Source: an archaeon (lineage in GTDB: Archaea > Iainarchaeota > Iainarchaeia > Iainarchaeales > VGJJ01). From it: DNA of 46,167 nucleotides. The translations under genes and the position numbers were made by a program. Under the pieces are notes generated by a model that was given only the letters and a program-made list of their open reading frames with translations, was not told the origin of the DNA and made no database searches. Shown in pieces: positions 3,117 through 40,930 of this stretch; the first letter of the stretch is position 1, and each line of letters opens with the position of its first letter. The stretch spans positions 1-46,167 of the forward strand of contig JBBSWQ010000104.1 in the NCBI GenBank assembly GCA_038046225.1, given 5' to 3'.

Positions 3117-3192
3117 GGGAGGGGATCCACCGGCAGGGGTGCATAGACACGCATTCGTAAAGAGGGTTTAAGAGGATTGGGGCGGGTCCGGC

Positions 3193-3951
3193 CTACTCTT
3201 TCCTTTCTTTGACCCTTTTTATGTCGGCATAAAATTGATCGTAGGTCAATTCCTTCATCCCGAGGCGGTGGAACACCTTGAGCATATTCTTGATGTCCCT
3301 TTCATAGAACGTTTTGGCATTGGGGTGGATGGTGGGCACGGTCTGTCCCACGTCGATGATGATGGGCATGTCATCCTTCACTAAAATGTTGTATTCCGAC
3401 AAATCTCCATGAATCAACTTGGCGTTCAGCATGGCCGCGATGGCCTTGACCACGTTTTCGTAGAATTTTTCCAGGTCCCCGATCCGGGCATCTTTGAGTC
3501 GGGGGGATGCTTCTCCTTTTTCTCCGATGAATTCCATCACGAGCACATTTTCTTTTGCCGCCAATGGCATGGGGGCGGGGACCCCGGCCTCTTTGAGCTT
3601 GCGCAGGGATGAGAATTCTTTCTGGGTCCATGCGAAGACGATTTGCCGCTTGTCGTTCTTTACTTTTTGGAATCGGGGGTCGAAGTGGAGATAATCTTCC
3701 ATTCGTTTGAAGTCCGATGTTTCGATCTTGTATATTTTTACCGCGCGATAGTGTCCATGGTTATCGGATGCGCGGAACACATGGGCCTCTTTGCCGGTGG
3801 AGATGGTGAATTCCAGGTGGTCGAAATGTCCAAGTGAGGCGAGGTTGTGGATGACGCGGATCACATTTTTGTCGAACACTTTCTCGAAGGTCTTCCTCAA
3901 ATCTTCTTCCGGAAAGAGCTTGGAGAGGTTGAATTCGTCTGGATTGCTCAT
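3193..3951 (-). CDS. rio1: RIO-type serine protein kinase
   Basis: 252 aa with kinase motifs STGKEAHVF, AVKIYK, LIHGDLSEYNILV, IIDVGQ. Ends with TAG. Conserved aIF1A-Rio-KH synteny. Confidence 0.85.
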   Translation of the reverse strand: MSNPDEFNLSKLFPEEDLRKTFEKVFDKNVIRVIHNLASLGHFDHLEFTISTGKEAHVFRASDNHGHYRAVKIYKIETSDFKRMEDYLHFDPRFQKVKNDKRQIVFAWTQKEFSSLRKLKEAGVPAPMPLAAKENVLVMEFIGEKGEASPRLKDARIGDLEKFYENVVKAIAAMLNAKLIHGDLSEYNILVKDDMPIIIDVGQTVPTIHPNAKTFYERDIKNMLKVFHRLGMKELTYDQFYADIKRVKERKE

Positions 3952-7248: not shown

Positions 7249-10200
7249 TCAGGCGCTCTTGAGGAACCCGTGCGTGGGTTCGTATATTTCCCCGGCTTTT
7301 TTGAGTTTGGTGATGAGGTCCCTCACTTTCTCTTCCTCAATTCCCCTGGATAGGGCTTCGGCGACTACATCCTGGATGGGTACCTTGTCCATCTCCTTGC
7401 TCTTGGATTTGATTATTTCCGTGATAGTTCGCATGTGGTCGCGCGAGGATTGCGTCTGTCCGCTTGTGATGATGTCGATATCGATGCGTCCCGTCTCGGG
7501 GTCCTTGACCACGTCCTCCAATGAGCTTTTCACCAATCGTATGGCGCGTTCTGCATCTTCCGTCGTCACTTCGTCGCTCAACCGGACGCGAGCCGATGCC
7601 TCGGCCAGGCGAACGAGTCCTTCCAATTGCCTCGCGGTGGCTGAATAACTTCCGGCTTGCCTTCCCTGGTCGCGCAACCCCACATAGAATTCTTGGAGCT
7701 GGGCCACTGCCTCGTGAGAGAGGATGGGGAATACTCGCTGGCGGGCGTAGGAGATGTATTTCCGCAATAGTTCCGCATCGATGGCGGGGGCGATCTTGTC
7801 CTGGATGGATTGTATCTCCTGCGTGTTGATCTGCTTGTTCCCGCGATTCATTTGGAGCAATTGTTCTCCCGCTCGGTGCGTGGCGAGGATGTGGGCGGCG
7901 ATGGTTTCGTCCTTTTTCCGGTCCAGCGTGTCCCGGATCATGAAGAATAAATCGAATCGCGAGATGAGGGAGGCGGGGAGGTCGATTTGTTCGAAGAATG
8001 GCTTGTAGTTGTCGAACCGTGATAGTTTGGGGTTTGCGGCCGCCAATACGGAGGTGTCGGTCTTGAACCGGGTCACCATTCCCGCTTTCGCCACGCTCAC
8101 CTGTCCCTGTTCCATGGCCTCGTGCATCGCGGATCGGTCCTCGGGTTCCATCTTGTCGAATTCGTCCACCATGACCATTCCTCCGGACGCTAACACGAGT
8201 GCGCCGGCCTTGAGGGTCCATCCTCCTTCTCCGAAGTCGTCTTTCACTGCGCTAGCCGTGTTGTGGACGTAGAATCCATTGGCGATGAAGTTGTGGCTTC
8301 CCGAAACGGTCATATCATACACGTAGGGGTAGTTGGGAGCGAATTCTTCTTTTCGTTTGATTTGATCCCACAGGATGTTGGCGTTGCTTAGCTTTTGGAG
8401 AAAACTATCCTCTTCATTTTTCATGAGCTCTTTCAATTTTGTGCAGGAGATGCGCGTCTTTCCTTTCTTGTATTTGACATCGGCTTTCGTTTCCTGCAAT
8501 GCCTCTGTTATTTCGGGGACGAAATCGATATTAGTCCTTTCTTCATGAATGCTTTGGATGATGGCGTCCAGCGTCTTCTGTTTTCGTTCGAGTCCGAATC
8601 CTATTTTTTCCCTGAATAGTTGGAGGTTTCTTTTTCCATAGATTTCGATGCAGTACTGGTCGTTTCGGCTGATGACGGTTATTTTTCTTCCGATGGCGAT
8701 GTTTCCTGCTCGCTTCCTGAATCGTTTTTTGGCGATTATTCCGAATTTGAGGAGAGATAGGTGGATCGTCTTGGCAAGGGATGGGCTGATTGAACTGATG
8801 CTGACATTCTTTCCGCCTGTTTTTGAATCATCCGCGCATCCATCTGTATCGAATAACCCTTGCAAAAGGTTTCGCAGAATCGGATTGGGCATCTCGGTGG
8901 CCATGTGCGATAATGTATTTTCTTTTTTCTCCGGCCGCATTCCATAGGCGTGAAGAATTTTTCCTAGAATGCGTGAACTCATTCGAAGGGAGGGGACTCT
9001 TTCTTCGCTTTTTTCCCTTTCGGGGATTATCCCGAACGTGTCACGCAATATTTGAGTGCATCGTTCGAGTATCTGCGGGTCGTTTCCACAGAGGCGGATG
9101 GTGGTTCGATCATCGCTATCTTCCATGCATCCGTCTCCCATGATGGCCCCAACCAGATACGCGACATCCGGATCATCCAGGTAGGGGGGGATGCGATTGG
9201 TGATGCCATGCCGGATGAACAGAGTCGTTATCCGTTGGGCGATTTGATCATCCGAATATCCGGCCTCGCGTGCCAATCCCACTACTTTTTGCAGTTCCCA
9301 TCCATGATAAAATTTAGGATTCTGGATGGCATAAATAGTGTCTCGGCTCTTTCCTACCTTTTGGGCAATAGCTTGTTTGCTGCCATACTTTGGGACGAGT
9401 TTCTCAATCATTTCCTTCATCCATCCCGCCAATGGGTCCCCAATTTTGATGTGGGGATCGTTCAATAGTGCGGTGAATGTGGGGATATTTTTCCGTTTCC
9501 CTTCGGGCAAAAACCGCGGAACGGCAACGTAGTCTCCATGTTGCAGCTCGCTGGCTTCAATCCACTCGGTTTTGCTGTTTTTGAGTCGGATGAGTGAAGT
9601 AGCGGGGGTCAGGTCCAGCTCCCTTCCGGTTCGCGTGATTAATTTTACCATCGTAGGGGGGGCGTTTATCCTCCATATTTTTTCAATCGGTTGGATCGCA
9701 AAATCCAACTGTCCGGTGAGTGCATCTGTCTTTCCATTGAATTCATTGCTGAATGCTCCCGGCAACTCTTCCCGTTTCGCGTCATTATCGAATTTTGCTT
9801 CAACAAACTCCTGGATGGTCTTGAATCCATCATCATTCAGGATCAATGAATCGGGTGCCACGCACAATCCGGCACTCGAGCTCCCCTTACCACTCACATA
9901 CACGCTCTTTGGCGCAATCTTGTCGGTGGCGTGCAGGAGCATAGAGTTGTGGGAGTATATTCCATTGGAAATGAAGTTGTGCGTGCCCTCGATCTCCATA
10001 TCATACACGTATTCCTCGACCGGGATTTCCTCTACCTTTTTCACTTGGTCCCAGAAAATATCCGAGATGGCCATTTTCATGAGGTTGGTGATGTCGTGCC
10101 GGAGTTGGACGTCCTCGTATCCATTTTCGTTATAGCGGTTCATGAATCCTGCCGCGATGAGATAGAGATTCCCTCGCGTGGGATTCCTATCTCCGCGTTC

Positions 10201-12435
10201 GTAGTGTTGGTAGGTCGTTCGAGGCATCTCCATTTGGAATTGGGAAAGGCCAAGAGTCTCTCGTATTCGTCTGATCTCCTCGCTCGTGCCTGGAACCACG
10301 TCTATATTCGTGTTGGGCTTGAATCCGAATAGTTGTTCGCACGCCTCTTTTTTTCGTTGGGTGATGAATCCTATTTCGTGGGCGAATTTTCGGGCAAAAT
10401 CACCTGAAATGGTCATGCGCCAATAGTCTCGTTTGATTCGTCTCCCATTCGTGGCCATTTTTCGTGTTTTTTGAGTGGTGGAGACGATTCCGAAACGCAA
10501 TAGGAGGTGGGATAATTCAATCAGGAGGCGTTCGCTCGCGGATGAGACCTCGATGGTGGATTGTTTTTTCCCATTGGAACGGACGGCCTGGACGTGCCCT
10601 TCCCCTTCGATGAATGCTTGGATGAATCCCTTGATGGTCACGAGGTCGCTCTTTTGGATGATGGCTGGAATCGTCCTCTGGCGGGAGTAGTTCAACAGTT
10701 CCGGGGTGTTGGTTTGGAGGAATCGGTAGAGCTCCACGCTGGGCAGGTCGCACGTGGCGGTTATTCCTTTCATCCGTTCTGAAAAGTGCAATCCAAAAAG
10801 ATCGTCCGATACTTTTCGGAACAATTCGATATTTTCATGGTCCGAGTTGGTGAATATCAGTCCGGTCGAGTTATCATGCGCGCGTGCATTTCCTTCTCCA
10901 AGGAGCAATCCGATGAATTGGCCGAATTGGAAGGAGGTCTTCTCCGGAAAACGGATATGCACCGCATTCGTCTTTCCTCTCCCGACCGGGTGCAGGGGCT
11001 GGGGGGTGCCGTGCACCGTGATGGATCGGGGGGTTGCGATAAAATCCCCTGCTTTCAATGATTCGGCCGGTGTGGCATCGGCTTTGGCCCGGTGGGCTTT
11101 GAATAATGGGTGCGTGTGCGTGCACTTGATTGTTTTCCCTGTTTGGGTCGTGACCCGGACCATTTTTTCGGGGACTCGTTTAGAGGCGGCTACGGCCTTT
11201 CCTACAATTTGTTTGATATCCCCATTCAGGATGGGCATTGGGGTCACCTGCTGCATGACGGCCATCATTCCGTCGGATAATTTTTCGGAGTTCTGGGAGA
11301 GGTGCTTCTCCACTAGGATGGAAATGGGGGACAATTCTCCACTGCAGAGGGGAACCAAGGCATCGCCTGAGACGCATTTTCCTGTTCCCGGGTCCCCCAC
11401 CAGGAGCACGTGGATGTTTCCCCGGATCCGTGTGTCGTCGGGGAGGTTTTTCCGCACGCCTCCGAACAATTGGAGGGAGATGGATTCCTTGGCGAGTTCG
11501 TGTCCGTGGATGGAGGGGGCGATGGATTGGATCAGGTATTCGTAGATGCGTGGGTTATTGGATAATTCCTTGATCTTCGTCTCGTCCTCTTCGTTGATGG
11601 AAACGTCCTCGAATTCCTTTTCGGTCTCTTCGAGGTGGATGGCTTCTAGGTATCGTCCGTATACGTTCTTCTTGTCCTTGTTGGGGGGGTATAGCCGGAG
11701 GACTCCCGTGATCATGGTCCGGTTTCCCGGATATACTTTGTTCACGAAATCGTCTTCGATGTACACGTCCAGGTTGACGGCCTGTTCGCTCCCTTTGAGG
11801 CTCTCTAAGGGTTCCTGTATCTGTATTTTTTGGTAGTCCGTGAATGCACTCCCCTCTGGGAGCAATTCGAAGTCCTTGTGCTTGCACGAGCATAGCGCGG
11901 GTTTTCGCTGCTGATGTCCTTCTTGGAGTATCTGGTATGTGTTCCCGCACCGCTTGCACCGCCAATTGGCGTTCTTGAGTTTGGGCATGACCTCCGTGAC
12001 TTGTCGAATGACTCCTTCCACGGAGATTAATCGTCCTAATTGGGCGGCGGAGATGTCCCGTACGAGCGGAGTGCGGTCCTTGGGTAGGCTCCGGAATCGC
12101 ACGTTGGGGGTGAATTGGTCCAGTTGCAATACGGATACTTCTATTTTCTGCACCGCGAGCTTGGCGGCCTCCATCAATAGGTCGGGGTGCTCCAAAAGTT
12201 CGTTGGCCAATTCGTAGTCGAACTCGTCCAAGTCGTTGAAATCCACGATTAATGAGCGTTGCTGCGGGTATTCATGGGCGAGTTTTTCGATCTGCTTTTT
12301 GTATTCCAGCGTGGAGAAGAATTCTTCGAATTTGGGGATGAAGGGATTGGCCTCTCCCTTGAGGACGGTGGAGGCAATCTCCATCTCTTCCGGTTTTTCG
12401 AACCGGGACTCATGATACTGGTTATCCCCATCCAT
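7249..12435 (-). CDS. mcm: MCM replicative helicase precursor containing two inteins (716-aa extein)
   Basis: 1728 aa. Contains a zinc motif CKRCGN...CSCKH. Walker A GDPGTGK|S is split by intein 1. SAGL|TA is split by intein 2. Walker B is VMVDEFDKM, followed by an arginine finger region and a C-terminal wHTH. Confidence 0.95.
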   Translation of the reverse strand: MDGDNQYHESRFEKPEEMEIASTVLKGEANPFIPKFEEFFSTLEYKKQIEKLAHEYPQQRSLIVDFNDLDEFDYELANELLEHPDLLMEAAKLAVQKIEVSVLQLDQFTPNVRFRSLPKDRTPLVRDISAAQLGRLISVEGVIRQVTEVMPKLKNANWRCKRCGNTYQILQEGHQQRKPALCSCKHKDFELLPEGSAFTDYQKIQIQEPLESLKGSEQAVNLDVYIEDDFVNKVYPGNRTMITGVLRLYPPNKDKKNVYGRYLEAIHLEETEKEFEDVSINEEDETKIKELSNNPRIYEYLIQSIAPSIHGHELAKESISLQLFGGVRKNLPDDTRIRGNIHVLLVGDPGTGKCVSGDALVPLCSGELSPISILVEKHLSQNSEKLSDGMMAVMQQVTPMPILNGDIKQIVGKAVAASKRVPEKMVRVTTQTGKTIKCTHTHPLFKAHRAKADATPAESLKAGDFIATPRSITVHGTPQPLHPVGRGKTNAVHIRFPEKTSFQFGQFIGLLLGEGNARAHDNSTGLIFTNSDHENIELFRKVSDDLFGLHFSERMKGITATCDLPSVELYRFLQTNTPELLNYSRQRTIPAIIQKSDLVTIKGFIQAFIEGEGHVQAVRSNGKKQSTIEVSSASERLLIELSHLLLRFGIVSTTQKTRKMATNGRRIKRDYWRMTISGDFARKFAHEIGFITQRKKEACEQLFGFKPNTNIDVVPGTSEEIRRIRETLGLSQFQMEMPRTTYQHYERGDRNPTRGNLYLIAAGFMNRYNENGYEDVQLRHDITNLMKMAISDIFWDQVKKVEEIPVEEYVYDMEIEGTHNFISNGIYSHNSMLLHATDKIAPKSVYVSGKGSSSAGLCVAPDSLILNDDGFKTIQEFVEAKFDNDAKREELPGAFSNEFNGKTDALTGQLDFAIQPIEKIWRINAPPTMVKLITRTGRELDLTPATSLIRLKNSKTEWIEASELQHGDYVAVPRFLPEGKRKNIPTFTALLNDPHIKIGDPLAGWMKEMIEKLVPKYGSKQAIAQKVGKSRDTIYAIQNPKFYHGWELQKVVGLAREAGYSDDQIAQRITTLFIRHGITNRIPPYLDDPDVAYLVGAIMGDGCMEDSDDRTTIRLCGNDPQILERCTQILRDTFGIIPEREKSEERVPSLRMSSRILGKILHAYGMRPEKKENTLSHMATEMPNPILRNLLQGLFDTDGCADDSKTGGKNVSISSISPSLAKTIHLSLLKFGIIAKKRFRKRAGNIAIGRKITVISRNDQYCIEIYGKRNLQLFREKIGFGLERKQKTLDAIIQSIHEERTNIDFVPEITEALQETKADVKYKKGKTRISCTKLKELMKNEEDSFLQKLSNANILWDQIKRKEEFAPNYPYVYDMTVSGSHNFIANGFYVHNTASAVKDDFGEGGWTLKAGALVLASGGMVMVDEFDKMEPEDRSAMHEAMEQGQVSVAKAGMVTRFKTDTSVLAAANPKLSRFDNYKPFFEQIDLPASLISRFDLFFMIRDTLDRKKDETIAAHILATHRAGEQLLQMNRGNKQINTQEIQSIQDKIAPAIDAELLRKYISYARQRVFPILSHEAVAQLQEFYVGLRDQGRQAGSYSATARQLEGLVRLAEASARVRLSDEVTTEDAERAIRLVKSSLEDVVKDPETGRIDIDIITSGQTQSSRDHMRTITEIIKSKSKEMDKVPIQDVVAEALSRGIEEEKVRDLITKLKKAGEIYEPTHGFLKSA
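8260..9864 (-). mobile_element. MCM intein 2 (535 aa, LAGLIDADG homing endonuclease) inserted at ...SAGL|TASA...
   Basis: Cys1 (TGC at 9864-9862). Block A CVAPDSLIL. LAGLIDADG motifs are YLVGAIMGDGC and LLQGLFDTDGC. Block F/G is VYDMTVSGSHNFIANGFYVHN, followed by +1 Thr. Confidence 0.8.
9946..11376 (-). mobile_element. MCM intein 1 (477 aa, LAGLIDADG homing endonuclease plus HTH) inserted in Walker A between GK and S
   Basis: Cys1 (TGC at 11376-11374). Block A CVSGDALV, block B CTHTH. LAGLIDADG motifs are FIGLLLGEGN and FIQAFIEGEGH. Block F/G is VYDMEIEGTHNFISNGIYSHN, followed by +1 Ser (9943-9945). Confidence 0.85.
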
Positions 12436-12468: not shown

Positions 12469-12670
12469 GCTTATGGCGGCTCATCGCCAACGGATTGGGA
12501 ATACTCTATTGCTATGTTATTTTTTGGGAGATACCTCCCAACGCTTCCCTCCTACTTAATGGGCAGGGGTTGGTTTTCCGAACGTGGGGAGCCCATTAGC
12601 TCTTTGGGTTCCGAACCAAAGAAATCGAGAAATAGGAAACGGGAAGATTGTGGCTGACCACTATCCCGAT

Positions 12671-13294
12671 TCAGGCTTGCAATCCCTCGATGGCTTTCTG
12701 GTTGTGGGCGCGCATTCGCTGGATGGCATCCCGCACCATCCCAATCACTTTCTGGTTGTGCGCTATCTGTTCGTTCGATAGGGGTTTTCCTTTCTGTGCC
12801 ACGCGTAGTCTTTCATTTTTCAATACCCTGGCGAGCATCGCATAATCATTTGCATGGGCGTTGTACCATTTTTTGTAGAGTGTTATTCCTGCTGCGGTGG
12901 CAACTGTAGCGCCCGCTACCGCTCCGCGCGCCATCATCCTGTTCAGTTCATGCTCTTCACTCGAAGAGAGATTGCTGGCGTGGTTCAAGTGCATCACATC
13001 AAATACGCCTATTCCAGTTAATGCTCCAGAAATAGTACCAAATGCAATAAGAGGATCAAATCTCCATCTTCGAGATGGGTGGCTAACATTCCCATTAATC
13101 CATCGTCCTGCGTATTTTTGTATAAGATGTTCCATTTTTTCCAATCGCTTGTCCGTTTTGAGGTGCATTCCCAGCATGGCTTTTCTTCCGAGAACCCTCC
13201 TTGGTAGAGATGGTCGTACTCCACGGAATGGAGTATTCTCTTTGCCCGCGTGTCTTCGTATTCCCTGTCTGATTTTTCCTCGTATCGTTCCCAT
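12671..13294 (-). CDS. Hypothetical protein with two hydrophobic segments
   Basis: 207-aa ORF 18 nt downstream of the AbiEi-like gene. Hydrophobic stretches are PLIAFGTISGALTGIGVF and GAVAGATVATAAGITLY. The true start is uncertain. Confidence 0.35.
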   Translation of the reverse strand: MGTIRGKIRQGIRRHAGKENTPFRGVRPSLPRRVLGRKAMLGMHLKTDKRLEKMEHLIQKYAGRWINGNVSHPSRRWRFDPLIAFGTISGALTGIGVFDVMHLNHASNLSSSEEHELNRMMARGAVAGATVATAAGITLYKKWYNAHANDYAMLARVLKNERLRVAQKGKPLSNEQIAHNQKVIGMVRDAIQRMRAHNQKAIEGLQA

Positions 13295-13312
13295 GGAGTT
13301 CGCAGGGGGGGA

Positions 13313-13930
13313 CTATTTATTCTTTTCCTTGTTGTGCGGGGTTTCCGTCGCGGTTTTCATAATGTTCGCCACTTTTTTTCGTACCCCTGCGGGGGCTTTT
13401 TTCAATAGTTTTTGGAGTTTTTCCCTATCGATTTGTTTCAACAGGTTTTCGCGTGCCTCGGCGGGTATTTTTTCCCTGAAATAGATGAAATCGATGAGTG
13501 TTTTTTCAATGGTGGAGACGGGTATCCAATAGTTGTAATGCGCAATGGTCTCAAATCCATAAAAGAGCTTTCGTGAAACGTGCCTCAGGACGAAATTCGT
13601 CCCCATTATTTCACGTGTGCCCCTGCGCGTGTTTTGGGTGGTGAGTATGACGGGATTTGTGGCCTGCGTCCAGAGTCGGTGATGGGTCAGGGCATAGTGT
13701 AATCCGTAATAGAAAGGTTGGAACGCAAACCCTGCCACGATGGGGTCATCCTGCGCAGAGTAGTATCCCTTTCCCGCGGATTGTATTTTTTGTTTTTGGA
13801 TGAGCGAATGCAGGAGCAATTTCACATAGTTGGGAGAACGTTTTTGGGGTTTGAGCCATAATCGGACATCCCGTGTCGTGAATAGCGGCCACTTCTTGAA
13901 ATGTTCTACGACATCCTGCGTGGTGGTCAT
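13313..13930 (-). CDS. AbiEi-like (COG5340-type) wHTH protein, putative type IV antitoxin/transcriptional regulator
   Basis: 205 aa. N-terminal wHTH-like region (FTTRDVRLWLK...LLHSLIQKQKIQSAGKGYY). C-terminal region has YYGLHYALTHHRLWTQ...VSTIEKTLIDF, typical of AbiEi. Confidence 0.6.
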   Translation of the reverse strand: MTTTQDVVEHFKKWPLFTTRDVRLWLKPQKRSPNYVKLLLHSLIQKQKIQSAGKGYYSAQDDPIVAGFAFQPFYYGLHYALTHHRLWTQATNPVILTTQNTRRGTREIMGTNFVLRHVSRKLFYGFETIAHYNYWIPVSTIEKTLIDFIYFREKIPAEARENLLKQIDREKLQKLLKKAPAGVRKKVANIMKTATETPHNKEKNK

Positions 13931-14574
13931 GGGCCTAAAATTATTTTTAGGGCGTATACCATCTGGTCAAAGGTGGGAATTGCTCCCTGCAGGATGAGAT
14001 TCTTGAGATTTCCTTCGTCCACAGGCGTTGGGAGCGTGGATAATTGTTCGGACAATTCTTTTTTTTCACTCGTTGAGAGTGTGGCGATGGCGCTCAAGTG
14101 GTATACGTCATAGATGTCCCGAATGAGCTTTCGGTTCTGGAATGCGGAGAGTTTTTCATGGAGTAATTCTTCCGGCGAGGGAGTGAGTATGGTCAACCAT
14201 GTCCCGTCGCTTTTTTCATAGGTCGATGCCACCGGGTTTTTGTATGGGCGGAGGGCGGTTTCAAACGAGACAAGCGTCCGTTCCCTCTGGACAGCGGCAT
14301 AGATAGCATTGGTCGTTTTCCTGAACTTGGTGAGCATCGCTCCCTCCCTTCCAAGTGCCTGGGCGAATTCCTCTTGGAAACTGGTTTTGGGCGAGAGATA
14401 GAAATCCACGTCCTCCGAAAAGCGGTTTCCGCCGAAGCATCGCCAGATGGCGGTTCCGCCGTGCATGACGGCGGTGGGTTCGAGGTCATAGACGATTTTG
14501 ACTAAAACGTCTTGGAGCCCGGCCATGTCTCGGTGGAGTTGGCGTTTCAGGCGCTTATTCAGGGGGATGTCCAT
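13927..14574 (-). CDS. AbiEii/AbiGii-family nucleotidyltransferase toxin (DUF1814)
   Basis: 215 aa with the hallmark MHGGTAIWRCFGGNRFSEDVDFY. ATGA overlap with the downstream AbiEi-like gene. Confidence 0.7.
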   Translation of the reverse strand: MDIPLNKRLKRQLHRDMAGLQDVLVKIVYDLEPTAVMHGGTAIWRCFGGNRFSEDVDFYLSPKTSFQEEFAQALGREGAMLTKFRKTTNAIYAAVQRERTLVSFETALRPYKNPVASTYEKSDGTWLTILTPSPEELLHEKLSAFQNRKLIRDIYDVYHLSAIATLSTSEKKELSEQLSTLPTPVDEGNLKNLILQGAIPTFDQMVYALKIILGP

Positions 14575-14591
14575 ACTATACTAAACCTACC

Positions 14592-14605
14592 AAAATTATA
14601 TAAAA
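14592..14605 (-). promoter_or_regulatory. TATA box for the AbiEii-like gene
   Basis: The minus strand reads TTTTATATAATTTT, about 25-30 nt upstream of ATG 14574. Confidence 0.45.
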
Positions 14606-14720
14606 GACTAACTTTGGTCGATTCATGAAATCAGGCATTGGTCCTATTTCAACACATCCTGTGCGTCAGACGCCATTTTTTTGGTCGGAGCGACTTTGAT
14701 GGCGATTCTCCCTCCAAAGC

Positions 14721-14730
14721 ATTATATATT
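14721..14730 (+). promoter_or_regulatory. TATA box for the PIN-like gene
   Basis: ATTATATATT lies about 25 nt upstream of ATG 14752. Confidence 0.4.
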
Positions 14731-14751
14731 GTATTGTGCACATTGTTGTAC

Positions 14752-15258
14752 ATGATTCTTTTGATTGAGGATTCGATGGTATTAATCCATTTGGCGAAAC
14801 TTTCCTTACTTGAGTTGAGTTGTGCTCATTTTGGAAATGTGGTGATTTCTGAAATGGTTCTGGACGAAACGGTCACGACTGGAAAAGAAAAAGGGTTTCC
14901 TGATTCTTTTTTGATTGAGGAAATGGTGCACAAAAAGAAAGTTCGCGTTGAGAAAGTTATCAATAAAGAATTGATCGAGCGCGTGAATCAGTTTAACGTT
15001 TATGGCGGAGAGGCCGAATCGGTTGCTCTGTATTGGCAGGAAAAAGCCGATTTGTTGGCATGCGACGACGATAACGTCCGATCCAAGAAGGATGTGTTAG
15101 GGCTTTCATTGATTGGGACGCCTGTCATCATTCTCCAGCTATTTCGAAATAAGTTGATTTCTGGAGAAGCAGTGATTGAGTCTGTTTCAAAACTTCGAAA
15201 AATTGGTTGGTTTCATTCTGAAGTATTGGATAGGGTTATTCGGGAGGTAAACAAATGA
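14752..15258 (+). CDS. PIN-like nuclease domain protein (DUF3368/COG2405 type), putative toxin
   Basis: Track ORF 14638-15258, trimmed by me to ATG 14752. Sequence runs ILLIEDSMVLIHLAK...GEAESVALY...ADLLACDDDNVRSKKDVLGLSLIGTPVIILQL. Confidence 0.6.
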   Translation: MILLIEDSMVLIHLAKLSLLELSCAHFGNVVISEMVLDETVTTGKEKGFPDSFLIEEMVHKKKVRVEKVINKELIERVNQFNVYGGEAESVALYWQEKADLLACDDDNVRSKKDVLGLSLIGTPVIILQLFRNKLISGEAVIESVSKLRKIGWFHSEVLDRVIREVNK

Positions 15259-15572
15259 GCGAAAGTCAAGCCATTGGTATCCGGGTAGAGAATGAGATGC
15301 TGAATAAAATTGATGATGTGGGCAAGGTCGAGAAAATGGATCGTTCGACTGCTATACGTATGCTGTTGGAAGTGGGGTACGCGTCCTATCTGCAACGTAA
15401 AGCCGCCGAGTGGTATAAGTCAGGTAAAGTAACTATGAGCAAAGCCGCCATGGATGCACATGTATCCATTTGGGAGATGGAACAGTATTTGGTTCGTCAT
15501 GGGTACAAGTCATCCTATTCTGTCGATGATTTGCGACACGAGATGAGGCTGTTTTCAAAAACAAAAAAATGA
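15255..15572 (+). CDS. RHH (CopG-like) plus UPF0175-like domain protein, putative antitoxin
   Basis: 105 aa. N-terminal IGIRVENEMLNKID...DRSTAIRMLLEVG has an RHH pattern. C-terminal YKSGKVTMSKAAMDAHVSIWEMEQYLVRHG has a UPF0175 pattern. ATGA overlap with the PIN gene. Confidence 0.55.
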   Translation: MSESQAIGIRVENEMLNKIDDVGKVEKMDRSTAIRMLLEVGYASYLQRKAAEWYKSGKVTMSKAAMDAHVSIWEMEQYLVRHGYKSSYSVDDLRHEMRLFSKTKK

Positions 15573-15726
15573 GGAAATGTCGGGATAAGGGTGGGGATGC
15601 AATTCCCTCGGCCCTATTCTGGGCAATCCATTTTCCTTGTGGGATTAATCATTTTTTTGCTCGCGTTTGGTGGAAACCGTTCGTGCACGGCTCATCGTTA
15701 AAAGCCCCTCCCTGTCCTTTCATTCC

Positions 15727-17259
15727 ATGTCCAAGGGTTTCTTCATTTCGTGCGCGATCGATTATCCCAATGCCAATCTCCATATGGGCCACCTGTATGA
15801 GAAGACCATCGCGGATGTGATTGCGCGCGTCCACCGGCTGAATGGGGAAAAAGTCCTTTTTACGGTGGGGAGTGATGAGCACGGGGAGAAAGTGGAGAAG
15901 GCCGCCCACGATGCGGGGTATTCTCCCCAGCAGTATGTGGACAATATGGCCATGCTCTTCCGTCGATTGTTCGACCAGTCATTGATATCCTATGATCGTT
16001 TCATCCGAACGACCGAAAAATCCCACGTCACGGCCGCCCAGGTGTTCTTTCAGTCCCTCTTCGATGCGGGGGATATCTATCCCGACCTGTATGAGGGTTG
16101 GTATTGCGTCTCCGATGAGACGTTTTGGACCGAGAAGGATTTGGTGGAGAAGAACGGGGCTAAACTATGTCCAAACCCTCATTGCGGAAAACCCGTTGAG
16201 CGTGTGAAGGAGGAATCGTATTTCTTCAAGTGGAGTAATTTTCAAAAGCCATTAGAAGAGTGGTATGATCACGTCCCTGCCAACGTGTTTCCTGAATTTA
16301 GGAAGAAGGAGATGGAGCAGTTCATGAAGGATGGGCTTCATGATATCTCGTTTTCTAGAAAATCCCTCCAGTGGGGGATTCAGGTCCCATTCAATTCGGA
16401 GCATACCATTTATGTGTGGGGGGATGCGCTGGTAAACTATTTGACGGTGTGCGGCTACCCTGAGAAGTATGCTGATTTCTGGCCCGCGGATATTCATGTG
16501 GTGGGTCACGATATCAATCGCTTCCACTCCCTGCTGTGGCCCGCCATGCTCATGAGTGCCAAGATTCCATTGCCCAAACAGGTCCTCGTTCACGGCTTCG
16601 TGAATGATGAGCGCGGAGAGAAAATGTCCAAGTCGAAGGGGAATGTGGTGGATCCTCTCCTCATTCTGGAGAAGTTTGGCATCGAGCCCATCCGGTATTA
16701 CCTATTGCGCGAGGCTCCCCTTGGGAACGATTTGGCCTTTTCGGAAAAGAACCTCATCGAGCGGAATAATTCCGAGTTGGCTGACGGATTGGGGAACCTG
16801 GTCTATCGTGTTTTATCCATGCTTGAGAAATACTGCAACGGGGTCATTCCAGACATCCAACCGGATGGGCAAATTCTTGGACAGGCTTCTCTTTCCGCCC
16901 AAGAATCCTATCGTTCCTACCTCTCCCATGACATTCAGGGAGCATTGGTCCATGCGTGGAAGATCGTATCGTTGGGAAACAAATCTATCGCGGATTCGGA
17001 GCCCTGGAAAAAGATGAAGGATGGGAAGCGGGACGAAGTGGAGGTGTTATTGGTGACGGAAGTGGAATTGCTGCGGCAGTTATCCATTCTTATTCAGCCG
17101 GTCCTTCCTACCACGAGCGATTCCATCTGCGCCCAATTCGGCTTTTCCACTCCTACCTTCTCCCAATTGTCCACGACCCCTCCCTCAAGTCCTCGTGCGG
17201 TGAAGAAGGGAAGCGTATTGTTTGTGAAGCGCGAACTTCCGGCAGTAGAAACGAAATAA
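15727..17259 (+). CDS. metG: Methionyl-tRNA synthetase
   Basis: HIGH-type motif (ANLHMGH) and KMSKS present; zinc knuckle CPNPHCGKP. Start trimmed from TTG 15667 to ATG 15727 (MSKGFFIS). Confidence 0.9.
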   Translation: MSKGFFISCAIDYPNANLHMGHLYEKTIADVIARVHRLNGEKVLFTVGSDEHGEKVEKAAHDAGYSPQQYVDNMAMLFRRLFDQSLISYDRFIRTTEKSHVTAAQVFFQSLFDAGDIYPDLYEGWYCVSDETFWTEKDLVEKNGAKLCPNPHCGKPVERVKEESYFFKWSNFQKPLEEWYDHVPANVFPEFRKKEMEQFMKDGLHDISFSRKSLQWGIQVPFNSEHTIYVWGDALVNYLTVCGYPEKYADFWPADIHVVGHDINRFHSLLWPAMLMSAKIPLPKQVLVHGFVNDERGEKMSKSKGNVVDPLLILEKFGIEPIRYYLLREAPLGNDLAFSEKNLIERNNSELADGLGNLVYRVLSMLEKYCNGVIPDIQPDGQILGQASLSAQESYRSYLSHDIQGALVHAWKIVSLGNKSIADSEPWKKMKDGKRDEVEVLLVTEVELLRQLSILIQPVLPTTSDSICAQFGFSTPTFSQLSTTPPSSPRAVKKGSVLFVKRELPAVETK

Positions 17260-19530: not shown

Positions 19531-20031
19531 ATGAATCTCCCTCTGGGCGTTTCCCGCTTCCTGGCGAAGAATGTGAAGTCCTTTGATCCCAAGCGAGAGC
19601 TCGAGGAGTTGTCCACGGCTTCATTCTCCGGCTACCTGATCGAATCCTCCTTTGGGGGGTTGGGCGTCGAGGAATCCGCTCTCTTATTCCGCAATGGTCA
19701 GGCCATTGGGGCCGTGTACGAGTATTATGGCGCCCACCACACCCTTTCGGGGGATGGGGCCCTCCCTCATGTCATGAATGCGTTTCTCTCCGCGGAGGGT
19801 GTTTTGGACGGAATAGACCTCTCGGCCCAGCAGGTGGATCTGGTCGTGGCCTTCAATGCCAGTCTCAAGCTCTCCACTCCCATTTCGAAAGGAATGTTTA
19901 AGTCGCTCGTGAAGGATCGTTTTGATGCCTCCTTGGGCCAGTCTATTGCCATTGCTCGGAACCCGGCCCAGCCGGCGTCCAAGGAATCGTTGTTCAAGAA
20001 GTTCGGTCTCGCGGGGATCGAGAACCATTGA
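19531..20031 (+). CDS. Hypothetical protein (first gene of the MinD-containing cluster)
   Basis: 166-aa ORF co-directional with the next three genes. No firm family assignment. Confidence 0.5.
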   Translation: MNLPLGVSRFLAKNVKSFDPKRELEELSTASFSGYLIESSFGGLGVEESALLFRNGQAIGAVYEYYGAHHTLSGDGALPHVMNAFLSAEGVLDGIDLSAQQVDLVVAFNASLKLSTPISKGMFKSLVKDRFDASLGQSIAIARNPAQPASKESLFKKFGLAGIENH

Positions 20032-20059
20032 ATAGGATGCTGATGTGGGTGAAAAATCT

Positions 20060-20524
20060 ATGGTGATAAAACAAGTGCGCTCGCTCGTTCGCGGGATCAC
20101 GCGCAAAGTGTTGGATGTCGAGGATCACGGTCCCCCGCAGGATCAGATGCATCTCTTGAATCATTTCCTTTCCCGCCACAAGTTCGAATTGAACACGACC
20201 TCCATTCAGGATTTGATACAATCCATGAAAAAGAAGCACCTCGTGGATTCCATCTGCATCTGCTCCCCGAATGGAAGTATCGTGATTTCCACGGATGGGA
20301 ATGATTTCTCCGAGGCCATCATTGGTTCGGCAATGTTCAATTACATCCGGACCGAGCTTCCTGAATCCGAGACCATTCTCATCAAGGATAAGGAGAATTG
20401 GTTCATGGTCTTCCCGCACAATGGGAAGATATACATCGTCCGGGCCGCCTCGGACATGGCCCGGGTGGAATTGCAGGCATTGGCGAAAGAGATTGAATCC
20501 TTCCTCAAGGCGCATGGGGAGTAG
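20060..20524 (+). CDS. Possible Roadblock/LC7 (MglB-like) domain protein
   Basis: Track ORF 20045-20524 (GTG), trimmed to ATG 20060. ICSPNGSIVISTDG...AIIGSAMFNYI...WFMVFPHNGKIYIV is consistent with the Roadblock fold. This is a weak, pattern-only call. Confidence 0.4.
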   Translation: MVIKQVRSLVRGITRKVLDVEDHGPPQDQMHLLNHFLSRHKFELNTTSIQDLIQSMKKKHLVDSICICSPNGSIVISTDGNDFSEAIIGSAMFNYIRTELPESETILIKDKENWFMVFPHNGKIYIVRAASDMARVELQALAKEIESFLKAHGE

Positions 20525-20525
20525 G

Positions 20526-21125
20526 ATGCGCGTGTCCTCCCATCCTGCCTATTTTTCTCTTCCTGGACTAATTCAAAAAATAGATGAACCGTTTCGTTCG
20601 TCGTGCATGCGCATCCTGACTGAAAATGCGGTGTTGTTCTCCAACACCCCTGCGGCGATTCACAATCATCAAACCTGGAATGGGGGATACCTGGATCATT
20701 TGCAGGAAATAATGAATCTGGCGATTGTTTTGTACGATTCCCTTGCCTCGCTTCGTCCTCTTCCCTTTTCGCTTTCGGATGCCTTGATGGTTCTTTTTCT
20801 CCATGACATTGAGAAGCCATGGAAGTATGAACTGGATTCGAAGGGCGCCCTTCAAATCAAAGAGTCCATGCGTGGTCACGCGGCTCAAGAGGCTTTTTGG
20901 CGAAAGATGCTTCCCGAGTATGGGGTTGTTTTTACTCCTGAACAGGAGAATGCCATGGTGTACGTGGAAGGGGAAAATGCGCAATATGCCCCGGGTCGTC
21001 GAACGCAGGGTCCCTTGGCCGCCTTTTGCCATTTGTGTGATACGACGAGTGCGCGGATATGGTTTGAGTATCCCCTCGCGAAGCAGGACCCCTGGATTGG
21101 GGCGGATCGGAATAACCCCGAATAG
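20526..21125 (+). CDS. HD-domain phosphohydrolase-like protein
   Basis: ATG at 20526 lies 1 nt after the previous TAG stop. H...GGYLDHL...LFLHDIEKP...CHLCD gives an HD-like metal-ligand pattern. Confidence 0.55.
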   Translation: MRVSSHPAYFSLPGLIQKIDEPFRSSCMRILTENAVLFSNTPAAIHNHQTWNGGYLDHLQEIMNLAIVLYDSLASLRPLPFSLSDALMVLFLHDIEKPWKYELDSKGALQIKESMRGHAAQEAFWRKMLPEYGVVFTPEQENAMVYVEGENAQYAPGRRTQGPLAAFCHLCDTTSARIWFEYPLAKQDPWIGADRNNPE

Positions 21126-21205
21126 CTCACAGGCCTCCCACGCGTTGATTTAAATGCCTAAACCCCTTCTATGGGTATTATTCCGTCCATTCGGGAGTGA
21201 AAAAC

Positions 21206-23437
21206 ATGGGTCGAAGTATCACGATTGTTTCCGGGAAGGGGGGAGTAGGCAAGTCGCTCGCCTTCGACGAGTACATCAGTCTTCCCAACGGAAGCATTGT
21301 TCAAATTGGCCCTTATATCGATGAACTCATTTCCAGAAGCCCCCAATCGGTGAAGAAAGTCATTTACCAACTGACCGATGGTTCCGAGGAAACGTTTGAA
21401 GTAATCGAACCGGCTGCCGGTTTTGAGTTGGACTCATTCTTGTTCTCGCAGCAAAATCAACAATTGGTGCACGTTCAAAAGAAACCCGTCTCGTTGATGC
21501 GCAAACCGGCGCCCAACGAGCTCCTAAAAATTAGTTGCTCTTCGGGAGATATTTCAGTAACCCCGGAGCACGCGTTTATTGTCATGCGCGAAGGTCAATT
21601 GCAGAAAGTCCGCGCGGACGAACTCGTTGCAAAGAAAGACTACGTGCTCTTATATAAGAATTTCAAAAATATCGAAAAAGAAGAAAATGTTCCAACTCCT
21701 GTCGCTTCTTGGTTGGGGTATGTTATTGGCGACGGCCACATGAGCGATTATCGTGTGGGAGTGTATAATTCTCCCGGAAAATTGCTTCCTCTTATTCGTA
21801 AATCATTCATGGACGTGTTTGGAGAATACCATGAAGTGGTCTCGCGCGGATTGCATGGAATTCATATCTATAAACAGGGAAAGATAAAAGCCATTTTTGA
21901 AAAATACGGGGTGAAGCAAGCTCTGTCCGGTGAAAAGGAAATCCCGACGTCATTATTTGACTCCAATAATGTTTCTCTTTCCGCATTCCTTCGAGCTCTT
22001 TTCGATTGTGATGGAACGGTGAACATTGAACGAAAGGAGGTGGAATATGATTCGAAATCAAAAAAGCTTGTATTCCAGGTCGCCTCTCTTCTCCGAACCC
22101 GTTTTGGGATTTCCTCTCAAATACATCTTACCTATAAAAGAGCCACGAATAGTAAAATGAAAGAGAAAGCCCCCTATTGGAGATTATACATTACGGGGGA
22201 AAGCGCCCGAAAGTTTGGCCAACTTATTGGATTTAATCACGTTGAAAAGGCGCGACGCTTGTATGCCAATTTTTCGAATAATAGAAAAATGAACACAAAC
22301 ATTGAAGTTTTTCCTGTCGGAAAGATTCTCAAAAAGATTCGCCAGGATTCAAATTTGACCGCTCTCCAAATTGCCAAAAAATTAGGCTGTACCAAACAAA
22401 TGGTGTATGAATACGAATGGGAGTATTATGGTCTATCTCGAGAAACAGTGCAAAAATATCTGAATCTATATTCTCAAATGAATGTTTCTCATCCCCAGCT
22501 TTCTTGGTTGCGGCAAATGCTAGAAGGGACCATTGAATTCCGTCGCGTGGATGAAACAAAGAAGATTTCCTATGATTGGCCCCATGTGTATGATTTCCAA
22601 GTGGCTGAAAACGGGGGACATTTCGTCCATTCTACTGGAATCATTATTTCAAATACATCCATCACGGCCAACCTGGGTATCGCCATGGCCCAGCGCGGGG
22701 TATCCGTGTGTTTAGTGGATGCGGACATCGCCATGGCGAATCTCTCCTTGTTATTGGGCATGCAGTCTTCTCCCATCACCCTTCACGATGTGCTGTTAGG
22801 CGAGGCGGGTGTGCAGGATGCCATTTATGATGGTCCCAATGGGCTGAAGCTCATTCCTTCCGGTTTGAGCTTGGAAAATTATCGCAGGGTGGATGCCGAC
22901 CGATTGGCTTCCGTCATCAAAGCTATCCAGCACAAGTTCGATTTTGTCTTATTGGATGGTCCGGCCGGGATTGAAAAGTCCGTGCTGGCCTCCATCGCGG
23001 CCACGGAGGAATGCCTGCTCATCGCCACGCCCGATTCTCCTTCCATTGCGGATGTGTTGAAAACAAAAATCGTGGCGCAGCGTTTGGGAAGCAAGCCTCT
23101 GGGCGTGGTATTGAACATGGTGCATTTTGAGAAGGGGGAGATTTCCAAGGAAGAAGTTTCTCGCATGATGGAACTTCCCGTGTATGCCGCGGTCCCCTAT
23201 GATGACGAGATGCGCCACTCCTTCCAGCGGGATAAGGCATTGCCCGTCATGCTTCGTAACTCTCAGGCCAAGTCCTCGATTGAGATTCAACGCCTCGCGG
23301 CCCGCTTGGCGGGGCTTCCCGTGCAAGCGGAGGAGAAGCACCCTCGCGGTCTTTTCGCGGGAATCATGGGTTTCTTCGCCCGACTATTCGGCGGGGGCCA
23401 TTCCAAGGGAGCGGGTGTGGAAGAGGTTCGGATATAG
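21206..23437 (+). CDS. minD: MinD/ParA-class deviant Walker A ATPase precursor containing an intein; C-terminal amphipathic membrane-targeting helix
   Basis: The extein reads MGRSITIVSGKGGVGK|TSITANLGIAMAQRGVSVCLVDADIAMANLS...LLDGPAGIE...GLFAGIMGFFARLFGG. Likely ATG at 21206, with GGGAGTG 8 nt upstream; the track uses GTG 21197. Confidence 0.85.
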   Translation: MGRSITIVSGKGGVGKSLAFDEYISLPNGSIVQIGPYIDELISRSPQSVKKVIYQLTDGSEETFEVIEPAAGFELDSFLFSQQNQQLVHVQKKPVSLMRKPAPNELLKISCSSGDISVTPEHAFIVMREGQLQKVRADELVAKKDYVLLYKNFKNIEKEENVPTPVASWLGYVIGDGHMSDYRVGVYNSPGKLLPLIRKSFMDVFGEYHEVVSRGLHGIHIYKQGKIKAIFEKYGVKQALSGEKEIPTSLFDSNNVSLSAFLRALFDCDGTVNIERKEVEYDSKSKKLVFQVASLLRTRFGISSQIHLTYKRATNSKMKEKAPYWRLYITGESARKFGQLIGFNHVEKARRLYANFSNNRKMNTNIEVFPVGKILKKIRQDSNLTALQIAKKLGCTKQMVYEYEWEYYGLSRETVQKYLNLYSQMNVSHPQLSWLRQMLEGTIEFRRVDETKKISYDWPHVYDFQVAENGGHFVHSTGIIISNTSITANLGIAMAQRGVSVCLVDADIAMANLSLLLGMQSSPITLHDVLLGEAGVQDAIYDGPNGLKLIPSGLSLENYRRVDADRLASVIKAIQHKFDFVLLDGPAGIEKSVLASIAATEECLLIATPDSPSIADVLKTKIVAQRLGSKPLGVVLNMVHFEKGEISKEEVSRMMELPVYAAVPYDDEMRHSFQRDKALPVMLRNSQAKSSIEIQRLAARLAGLPVQAEEKHPRGLFAGIMGFFARLFGGGHSKGAGVEEVRI
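21254..22654 (+). mobile_element. MinD intein (467 aa, LAGLIDADG endonuclease plus HTH) inserted in Walker A between GK and T
   Basis: Ser1 (TCG at 21254-21256). Block A SLAFDEYISLPNG, block B VTPEH. LAGLIDADG motifs are WLGYVIGDGH and FLRALFDCDGT. Block F/G is VYDFQVAENGGHFVHSTGIIISN, followed by +1 Thr (22655-22657). Sampled lines look AT-richer than the flanks. Confidence 0.8.
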
Positions 23438-23442
23438 TATCA

Positions 23443-23466
23443 TTTTTTTTGGGGTATTCCAAAAAA
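23443..23466 (+). terminator. T8 run with TTTTTTGG/CCAAAAAA hairpin after minD
   Basis: catTTTTTTTTggggtattCCAAAAAAggag lies immediately after the minD TAG and before the Sm gene Shine-Dalgarno (AAGGAG). Confidence 0.4.
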
Positions 23467-23479
23467 GGAGCAACAACCT

Positions 23480-23716
23480 ATGAATAACGCCACGATCCAA
23501 GCATCCCGTCCCTTCGACTGGTTGAGTGAGAGCCTCAACAAGAATGTCCTGGTCGAACTCAAAGGCAGCATGTCCGTGCGGGGCACCCTGAAAGCATTTG
23601 ATGTGCATATGAATGTCGTCCTCGAGGATGCGGAATCGCTCGAGAATGGGAATCCCAAGACCAAATACGGGAAAGTCCTGTTGCGCGGGGATAATATTCT
23701 GCTGATTTCACCGTAG
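23480..23716 (+). CDS. Sm-like (LSm/SmAP) RNA-binding protein
   Basis: 78 aa with Sm1/Sm2 motifs: VLVELKGSMSVRGTLKAFDVHMNVVLEDAE...VLLRGDNILLISP. Confidence 0.85.
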   Translation: MNNATIQASRPFDWLSESLNKNVLVELKGSMSVRGTLKAFDVHMNVVLEDAESLENGNPKTKYGKVLLRGDNILLISP

Positions 23717-23734
23717 TTTCTTTTTTTCTGAAAG

Positions 23735-23806
23735 TGGACGCTGGGGGATTTGAACCCCCAACCTCTTCCATGCCATGGAAGCGCGCTACCGTTGCGCCAA
23801 GCGCCC
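23735..23806 (-). tRNA. tRNA-Ala (anticodon GGC), no encoded CCA
   Basis: Hand-folded. Acceptor GGGCGCT/AGCGTCC includes the G3:U70 alanine identity pair. D stem GCGC/GCGC. Anticodon stem CTTCC/GGAAG with loop AT-GGC-AT. T arm GGGGG-TTCAAAT-CCCCC. Discriminator A. Confidence 0.85.
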
Positions 23807-27309: not shown

Positions 27310-27392
27310 AAGGGTCGCGCCGTTTTCGTCCGGCGGTGTCGATGGACTACTTTGGCATGGTCTTCGACCATGCAGTAGGCCTGATTGAAAAG

Positions 27393-27464
27393 TAGCCCCG
27401 GGCAGAGTCGAACTGCCCCCTCCACCATGTCAAGGTGGCATCCTAGCCGATAGACAACGGGGCC
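27393..27464 (-). tRNA. tRNA-Val (anticodon GAC), no encoded CCA
   Basis: Hand-folded. Acceptor GGCCCCG/CGGGGCT (G1:U72). D arm GTCT-ATCGGCTA-GGAT. Anticodon stem CCACC/GGTGG with loop TT-GAC-AT. T arm GGCAG-TTCGACT-CTGCC. Discriminator A. Confidence 0.8.
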
Positions 27465-40907: not shown

Positions 40908-40930
40908 ACTACTATCTACTTCCAACCCCC

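Follow-up and report, generated by a model that had tools for sequence, protein, structure and literature searches.

The DNA analysed here (the window) is a stretch of 46,167 nucleotides, positions 1 to 46,167 of contig JBBSWQ010000104.1 of the archaeal assembly GCA_038046225.1 (Iainarchaeota), and it carries on its forward strand a gene for MinD, a MinD/ParA-class positioning ATPase, whose Walker A loop (P-loop) is interrupted by an intein. The host gene is a single uninterrupted open reading frame (ORF) of 746 codons in the ORF list (21197-23437, forward strand), with its stop codon at 23435-23437. The mechanical start of this frame is the GTG at 21197, and the true start is probably the ATG at 21206, just 5' of which lies GGGAGTG and with which the orthologs agree in that all begin with MGRS or MAR. 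Counted from the GTG, as residues of the precursor are throughout, the intein comprises residues 20-486 and is preceded by 19 residues that end in SGKGGVGK; counted from the ATG, it comprises residues 17-483 and the N-extein is 16 residues long. The insert splits the deviant Walker A motif between Lys and Thr (SGKGGVGK/T, the slash marking the junction here and below), and the host sequence resumes at residue 487 with TSITANLG.

An earlier reading of the letters and translated frames of this stretch, made without database searches (the sequence-only reading), had placed an intein at 21254-22654 in the Walker A loop of a MinD, and these coordinates prove to be exact. The closest intein-free allele (protein P0037, locus L001), which shares 96% identity with the spliced extein and has the sequence SGKGGVGKTSITANLG, lies on a contig syntenic with the window, the common gene order being MCM, MetRS, aIF5A, two small genes, minD, LSm and onward. 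In blastn alignments, L001 6020-6098 equals window 21174-21252 and L001 6096-7160 equals window 22651-23714; thus, the window exceeds L001 by exactly 1401 nucleotides, placed after AAG (Lys) and before ACA (Thr) at the point where the empty site of L001 reads GGGAAGGGCGGGGTTGGAAAA/ACCTCTATTACGGCCAACCTG. Excision of residues 20-486, which had been expected to restore a complete MinD, indeed yields SGKGGVGK-TSITANLG followed by the MinD body. The spliced sequence carries the KGGxGK[ST] signature, its GKGGVGK/T is identical to that of intein-free orthologs, and the 279-residue product (from the GTG) scores 278.8 bits against TIGR01969 minD_arch (cutoff 201.75; profile positions 1-247 of 251). Searching with the spliced sequence at E <= 1e-20 recovered 1476 MinD relatives; of the 120 best, almost all are 257-293 residues long, and the top three (96, 93 and 90% identical) are intein-free and read the same motif uninterrupted. 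By curated profile and fold, the host is an archaeal MinD, and a positioning function is predicted for it. A C-terminal amphipathic helix, GLFAGIMGFFARLFGG, is also predicted at 23348-23395, and the structural model described below has a helix at residues 720-730 (GLFAGIMGFFARLF) with a predicted local distance difference test score (pLDDT) below 50.

The insert is a bona fide intein, composed of a Hint domain, a LAGLIDADG homing endonuclease (HEN) and a helix-turn-helix (HTH) accessory domain (Table 1). Hint blocks A, B, F and G and two LAGLIDADG motifs, all of which had been named from the letters, are borne out by profile and fold matches. Block A, SLAFDEYISLPNG, begins with Ser1; it is followed by an invariant MRKPAP at 21494-21514, whose Lys occupies the NX-motif position, and by block B, VTPEH, at 21557-21571. 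LAGLIDADG motif 1 reads WLGYVIGDGH (21710-21739) and motif 2 reads FLRALFDCDGT (21986-22018), with both catalytic Asp residues present. Block F is HVYDFQV, which provides Asp F:4 and is followed by GGHF with His F:13, and block G, GIIISN, ends in the penultimate Ser and the terminal Asn, after which comes Thr. The HTH domain, which the sequence-only reading had overlooked, also matches profiles of CylR2, lambda-repressor-like proteins and MBF1. NCBIfam intein-containing models were matched in their intein parts only.

Table 1. Features of the intein-bearing minD gene (positions in the window; model residues are those of the AlphaFold2 model)
Feature	Position	Strand	Model residues	Basis
minD precursor gene	21206..23437	+		ORF list, ortholog starts, TIGR01969 score of spliced product
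N-extein MGRSITIVSGKGGVGK, with the deviant Walker A signature Lys and the P-loop Lys	21206..21253	+		aligns to L001 6020-6098
Intein, Ser1 to Asn467, 467 residues, 1401 nucleotides	21254..22654	+		absent from L001; Pfam and Foldseek matches
Hint N-terminal half: block A, MRKPAP, block B	21254..21655	+	20-153 (Hint beta-strands)	invariant columns; model beta-strands 26-153; profile alignments to KlbA 2jmz, PI-PkoII 2cw7 and 9hth
LAGLIDADG homing endonuclease domain	21695..22276	+	167 to about 360	Pfam PF14528 (LAGLIDADG_3) 7e-18; PDB sequence matches 7qss/7qsu and 2cw7
HTH (XRE/HTH_3-like) accessory domain, between endonuclease and C-terminal Hint strands	22319..22525	+	375-443 (five-helix bundle)	Pfam HTH_3 23.8 bits; five model helices
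C-terminal Hint strands: blocks F and G	22532..22654	+	446-486	invariant D466, H475, S485 and N486; codon variation
C-extein (MinD body), Thr+1 first (TSITANLG...)	22655..23434	+		L001 identity; Foldseek 1hyq/1g3q/1ion

The predicted structure points in the same direction. An AlphaFold2 model of the precursor was built on an alignment of 19 sequences (mean pLDDT 77), and the Hint fold, for which profile search and structure prediction had been proposed as a check, was recovered. In Foldseek searches against the PDB, the best match of the insert is the HEN-associated TliVMA intein (7qss; E 3.7e-24, template modelling (TM) score 0.75 on target), followed by PI-PfuI (1dq3), PI-TkoII (2cw7), PhoVMA (7qst) and PI-SceI (1ef0), with E-values of 4e-24 to 5e-10 overall. 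The rest of the precursor matches archaeal MinD structures (1hyq, at 46% identity, 1g3q and 1ion) with TM scores of 0.83-0.88.

The window copy is one member of a family. Searching with the full precursor yielded 19 MinD proteins that bear this insert (35-71% identity), and a search with an intein-only profile found 22 protein clusters, all of them MinD. When GTDB species were scanned, each represented by one genome, the allele was present in 11 genomes from five named DPANN phyla and from unclassified archaea, i.e., two of Iainarchaeum (Diapherotrites), five of unclassified archaea, and one each of Micrarchaeota, Aenigmatarchaeota, Woesearchaeota and Nanoarchaeota; a Pacearchaeota protein found by the profile search bears it as well. 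None of the database copies is annotated as intein-containing. All copies read GKGGVGK/S...SN/T, and the invariant or nearly invariant elements are Ser1, MRKPAP, Thr-x-Glu-His, GDG and DxD, VYDFQ, GGHF, Ser-Asn and Thr+1. Ser1 (Ser20) does not vary in the 19 proteins or in 10 genomic loci. Of the block B residues, T122, E124 and H125 vary in none of the 12 full-length inteins and only slightly across the alignment of 19 sequences; D466 and H475 show no variation, nor do the endonuclease residues G159-D160-G161, D251 and D253 in those 12 inteins. This conservation of catalytic residues covers 19 proteins and 11 genomic loci, between which extein identity is 28-86%.

The sequence-only reading had described the splice junctions as non-canonical. 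The residues themselves (Ser1, Ser-Asn, Thr+1) were read correctly; it is the label that was overstated. Standard class 1 inteins use Cys or Ser as the nucleophile of position 1 and Cys, Ser or Thr as that of position +1 (PMC4031507), and InBase held 58 Ser1/Ser+1 or Ser1/Thr+1 inteins belonging to 16 alleles (PMC10189870). The MinD intein has the attributes of class 1: Ser1 (Ser20), Asn486 followed by Thr487, Thr-x-x-His in block B, Asp F:4, His F:13 and the Hint fold. In place of the penultimate His (G:6), an assisting residue, every member has Ser (Ser485 in the window); this His is common in class 1 and not obligatory, so membership stands, and its loss is a known variant, splicing without it being documented in references 74 and 87 as cited by PMC4031507. 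What is unusual lies elsewhere. Ser1 inteins have a signature NX motif, [R/K]-His, and mutation of this His abolished or severely reduced splicing in three of the three inteins tested (PMC10189870). The MinD inteins have the Arg, and at the His position an invariant Lys: in profile alignments, the Arg-Lys of MRKPAP sits on the Arg-His (IRH) of PI-PkoII (2cw7) and on the Lys-His of 9hth. It appears, from this alignment to solved inteins, on which the role of Lys84 of the intein rests, that the unusual feature is the Lys in place of the NX His typical of Ser1 inteins and not the Ser1/Thr+1 pair. The Lys had escaped the sequence-only reading.

The codons at the junctions indicate how these residues have been maintained. 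Ser1 is encoded by TCG in the window, whereas the ten other loci that reach across the N-junction all have AGT or AGC there; the TCG and AGY families of Ser codons are more than one mutation apart. Synonymous variants also occur at the penultimate Ser (TCA, TCC, TCG), Asn (AAT, AAC) and Thr+1 (ACA, ACC, ACT). Because Ser1, Ser-Asn and Thr+1 are kept despite such synonymous change, selection has acted at the level of the amino acids. Consistent with this, the ratio of nonsynonymous to synonymous substitution rates (dN/dS, by Nei-Gojobori) of the intein is approximately 0.12-0.15 where dS is unsaturated (dN/dS of 0.13/0.95 for L006-L007, 0.02/0.14 for L009-L013 and 0.15/1.24 for L005-L006), and the intein, as a family, is judged from these comparisons to be under purifying selection. 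The extein of the window is 97% identical in amino acids to that of the intein-free L001 at a dS of approximately 1.6; the host protein is therefore strongly constrained, which implies that a functional product, and hence removal of the intein, is required. The sequence-only reading had asked whether splicing might be lost. This finds no support, given that the four junction residues do not vary in any homolog even though their codons do, and that purifying selection acts on the intein; judged from these patterns, the element is almost certainly functional and has retained splicing.

The interpretation we favour, at a probability of roughly 0.85, is that the insert is an intact class 1 intein with a LAGLIDADG endonuclease and an HTH domain, which splits the deviant Walker A motif of an archaeal MinD after the P-loop Lys, directly before the Thr that coordinates Mg. 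The chemistry of splicing, the activity of the endonuclease and the dependence of the ATPase on splicing are what we infer for it, as follows. A precursor of approximately 743 residues would be translated, and its interrupted P-loop would preclude ATPase action. Ser1 would undergo an N-O acyl shift, Thr+1 would attack the resulting ester, cyclisation of Asn467 would release the intein, and an O-N shift would yield a MinD of 276 residues with GKGGVGKT. Thr B:7, His B:10, Asp F:4 and His F:13 would assist these steps, with Lys84 at the usual place of the NX His of Ser1 inteins and Ser at the usual place of the penultimate His. The endonuclease, aided by the HTH domain, would cut intein-free minD at the conserved P-loop-coding DNA, and repair of the cut gene would copy the intein in, so that the element would circulate among DPANN archaea.

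Several observations weigh against this interpretation. The MinD intein lacks both assisting histidines, i.e., the penultimate His and the NX His, and a nucleophile set composed entirely of oxygens is intrinsically less reactive, so that splicing may be slow or condition-dependent. Synonymous divergence is saturated between the window and all intein-bearing relatives, and for this reason selection on the window copy is deduced from the family. The Pfam Intein_splicing model (PF14890) scores 33.3 bits, slightly below its gathering score of 35.8, which is probably why public copies are labelled just 'cell division ATPase MinD'. Finally, the confidence of the AlphaFold2 model is lowest at both junctions (residues 14-18 and 480-487), although such poor confidence would also fit a P-loop that is unformed in the precursor.

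The distribution of the intein suggests horizontal mobility, another aspect that the sequence-only reading had overlooked. The nearest orthologs, with extein identities of 96, 93 and 90%, are intein-free, so presence is patchy, and the histories of intein and extein disagree. Between the window and L002, L003 and L010, the exteins are 85-86% identical and the inteins 61-63%, whereas between the window and P0002 the corresponding values are 71 and 70%. For L009 and L013, the inteins are 95% identical (dS 0.14) and the exteins 88% (dS 0.95), and across two deep MinD clades, the inteins are 40-46% identical and the exteins 28-34%. Base composition differs as well: the G+C content (GC) of the intein is 0.425 (0.44 at third codon positions, GC3) compared with 0.559 (GC3 0.67) for the C-extein, and the intein is more AT-rich than the host gene in all 11 other loci too. 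Both catalytic Asp residues of the endonuclease are intact in the window intein and in all 12 full-length inteins aligned, and decayed endonucleases also occur (P0003 has Asp replaced by Gly in motif 2, and P0017 and P0018 are without motif 1); intact and decayed copies side by side are what a homing cycle predicts. Taken together, the patchiness, the incongruence between intein and extein, the GC gap and the mixture of intact and decayed endonucleases agree with a selfish HEN-intein passing through its homing cycle. The homing target would be the DNA that encodes the almost invariant SGKGGVGKT, and the intein is a clear example of transfer across DPANN phyla.

The same facts bear on the idea that the intein is a domesticated conditional-splicing switch that gates the ATPase of MinD, and so cell positioning or division, by temperature, pH, redox or a ligand. 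Its placement in the P-loop ties activity to splicing, and control of splicing by the extein has a precedent in the P-loop intein of Pyrococcus RadA (PMC4513877). The rate could be tuned by the unusual assisting residues, which are invariant (Lys at the place of the NX His, Ser at that of the penultimate His), and the intein is under purifying selection. However, any intein in an important gene is expected to show purifying selection at its splicing residues, and the closest orthologs, at 90-96% extein identity, do without the intein. The discordant histories and sharply different composition of intein and extein also argue against such a role, and a retained endonuclease active site, together with the absence from close orthologs and the discordance, is the prediction for a selfish homing element. 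A switch is an unlikely explanation.

It is less likely still that the intein is degenerate and splicing-dead, minD being disrupted on its way to loss or giving cleavage products only. This would agree with the missing penultimate and NX histidines, with the sub-threshold Intein_splicing score and with the earlier worry about atypical junctions. Against it stand the unbroken frame of 746 codons, the invariance across phyla of the nucleophiles and of the block B and F residues amid synonymous codon turnover, the low dN/dS of the intein, and an extein nearly identical to that of its intein-free ortholog despite the high dS; moreover, inteins without a penultimate His are known to splice, according to PMC4031507 and the references it cites. 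The weakest alternative, a route outside class 1 such as direct attack on the N-terminal amide as in the class 2 KlbA inteins, could appeal to the best solved Hint-domain sequence match (Mja KlbA, 2jmz, 1.3e-10, with Arg-Lys aligned to Arg-Lys), to the full-length alignment with a Thermococcus KlbA intein described below and to the Ser G:6 of all class 2 inteins (PMC4031507), but it is barely credible, as that class is defined by Ala1 and Cys+1 whereas selection on the amino acids has kept Ser1 and Thr+1 invariant here, Thr is poorly suited as a nucleophile to attack an amide directly, and the profile scores given below show no special kinship with KlbA.

With regard to known systems, the intact class 1 intein of MinD most resembles the TliVMA and PhoVMA inteins (VMA-b, in the P-loop of the archaeal A-ATPase A subunit; 7qss, 7qsu, 7qst), which are its best structural match and the best PDB sequence match of its endonuclease domain. 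They share with it the insertion in a P-loop and the order Hint-N, LAGLIDADG HEN, accessory domain, Hint-C, and the accessory domain of the TliVMA intein is HTH-like and occupies the same position (PMC8966425). They differ in the host protein and share only 14-19% sequence identity with it across the structural alignment. Since the crystallised VMA constructs are C1A mutants according to their entry titles, the VMA inteins begin with Cys, in contrast to the Ser1, Ser-Asn and Thr+1 of the MinD intein. A second comparison concerns the cysteine-independent inteins with Ser1/Ser+1 or Ser1/Thr+1 (PI-TkoII/PkoII, Psp Pol-1, Mja TFIIB and PolB16), with which the MinD intein has in common the Ser1/Thr+1 oxyester nucleophile set and the block B His, as well as the Arg before the NX position and conserved Glu residues in the preceding strand (PMC10189870). 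They differ in having His at the NX position (Lys in MinD) and a penultimate His (Ser in MinD).

The class 2 KlbA inteins, exemplified by Mja KlbA (2jmz), have Ser at G:6 and Arg-Lys at NX, as in the MinD intein, but they have Ala1 and Cys+1 and skip the first step of splicing (PMC4031507), whereas Ser1 and Thr+1 are invariant in MinD. A full-length KlbA-type class 2 intein (NTGHDG/ALLKDE...GIIVSN/C) lies at 3001-4299 of L012, from Thermococcus sp. JdFR-02; it aligns with the MinD intein across all 467 residues at 27% identity, with the SN end in common. A sister relationship with KlbA was nonetheless dropped, as other P-loop inteins outscore this one on the MinD-intein profile: the MCM-a intein of P0024 scores 173 bits and inteins of DPANN SRP54 proteins score 133-171 bits, as compared with 157 bits for the Thermococcus KlbA intein, 141 bits for a P-loop intein from Omnitrophota and 108 bits for the MCM-a intein of the window.

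According to PMC4760082 and PMC4513877, inteins occur most commonly at the P-loop, and related inteins have been proposed to spread between the P-loops of unrelated proteins (PMC10710043). The MCM-a, DnaB-b, RFC-a and RadA/RecA site c inteins likewise interrupt essential nucleoside triphosphatases in the Walker A loop or at its end; the MinD host differs from these known hosts in being a positioning ATPase of the MinD/ParA class (SIMIBI). Junctions immediately after the Walker A Lys are found in SRP54 (GAGK/C..HN/T), in MCM-a (GDPGxxK/C..HN/[ST]) and in a bacterium of the Omnitrophota (GPNGCGK/C). The MCM-a intein of the window (GDPGTGK/C...HN/S) and the DPANN SRP54 inteins (GAGK/C...HN/T) share this position with the MinD intein but have Cys1 and His-Asn. 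The DPANN SRP54-family GTPases in question (P0020-P0034, approximately 1040 residues) carry a related HEN-intein at the P-loop, as does L015 at 3001-3336, and most of them are not annotated as containing inteins.

The window contains further inteins, which the sequence-only reading had also missed although its intein call in minD was right. The MCM gene (7249-12435, reverse strand, 1728 residues) has two more HEN-inteins, one in the Walker A loop (GDPGTGK/CVSGD...GIYSHN/S), with an HTH_3 domain of its own, and one at SSAGL/CVAPD...GFYVHN/T, while the MCM of L001 is intein-free (716 residues). Three inteins, one in minD and two in MCM, are thus present within 46 kb of one genome. That the MinD intein arose recently by copying of the P-loop MCM intein within this genome was considered and rejected, the identity being 29% and limited to the HEN domain.

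Other segments of the window also differ from L001. Approximately 3.1 kb between MCM and MetRS (12583-15727; lower GC, 0.46) are lacking in L001 and encode an AbiEii-type nucleotidyltransferase toxin (13927-14574, reverse strand) and three ORFs without a Pfam match; this segment looks like a small inserted island. Directly 5' of minD, approximately 650 bp (20521-21173) are missing from L001, whose corresponding gap measures 48 bp, and an ORF within 20295-21125 has an H...HD-like motif and no Pfam match in a Pfam scan. Two small genes of 166 and 159 residues (19531-20524, forward strand) lie directly upstream of minD in an order kept in L001; a Pfam scan assigned them to no family, and they could be partners of MinD. 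Downstream, tRNA-Ala(GGC) is encoded at 23734-23806 and tRNA-Val(GAC) at 27392-27464, both on the reverse strand, and the tRNA-Val region is 98.8% identical to L001 as compared with approximately 75% for the flanking genes. Between 39693 and 42000, GC falls to 0.41-0.45 around a gene for an AAA_14/DUF4143 ATPase (39693-40925, reverse strand), and this may be another acquired segment.

It should be noted that the intein described here belongs to a well-known kind of element and sits at the best-known kind of site, the host allele being what is new, and it leaves the understanding of how inteins work unchanged. The sequence-only reading had suggested that MinD is novel as an intein host. Our literature searches found no paper linking inteins with MinD, with the limit that prior cataloguing remains possible, the census supplement and the intein databases not being covered; MinD is also not in the top-15 host tables of the intein census (PMC4760082). 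The novelty is nonetheless narrower than had been implied, as the allele already exists, unannotated, in approximately 22 clusters and 11 GTDB genomes. Within these bounds, a positioning ATPase of the MinD/ParA class is added to the intein hosts, a host that the literature searched does not report, and the finding shows that annotation pipelines label intein-bearing precursors simply as 'cell division ATPase MinD'.

For specialists, the interest lies in nucleophiles that are all oxygens without either auxiliary His, in the spread across DPANN phyla and in the intein load of this genome. Approximately 22 natural Ser1/Thr+1 inteins without a catalytic Cys, an NX His or a penultimate His could aid the engineering of cysteine-independent inteins, and the family could help in studying how Ser1 is activated. 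A bolder suggestion, to which we give rather low odds, is that the MinD inteins form a mechanistically distinct all-oxygen lineage of class 1, in which replacement of the NX His by Lys and of the penultimate His by Ser would entail another activation of Ser1 and of Asn cyclisation, and in which slow or condition-gated splicing might couple the MinD-dependent cell organisation of DPANN archaea to their environment. More broadly, the occurrence of related inteins immediately after the Walker A Lys in the MinD, SRP54 and MCM proteins of DPANN archaea supports the view of the P-loop as a hot spot for inteins.

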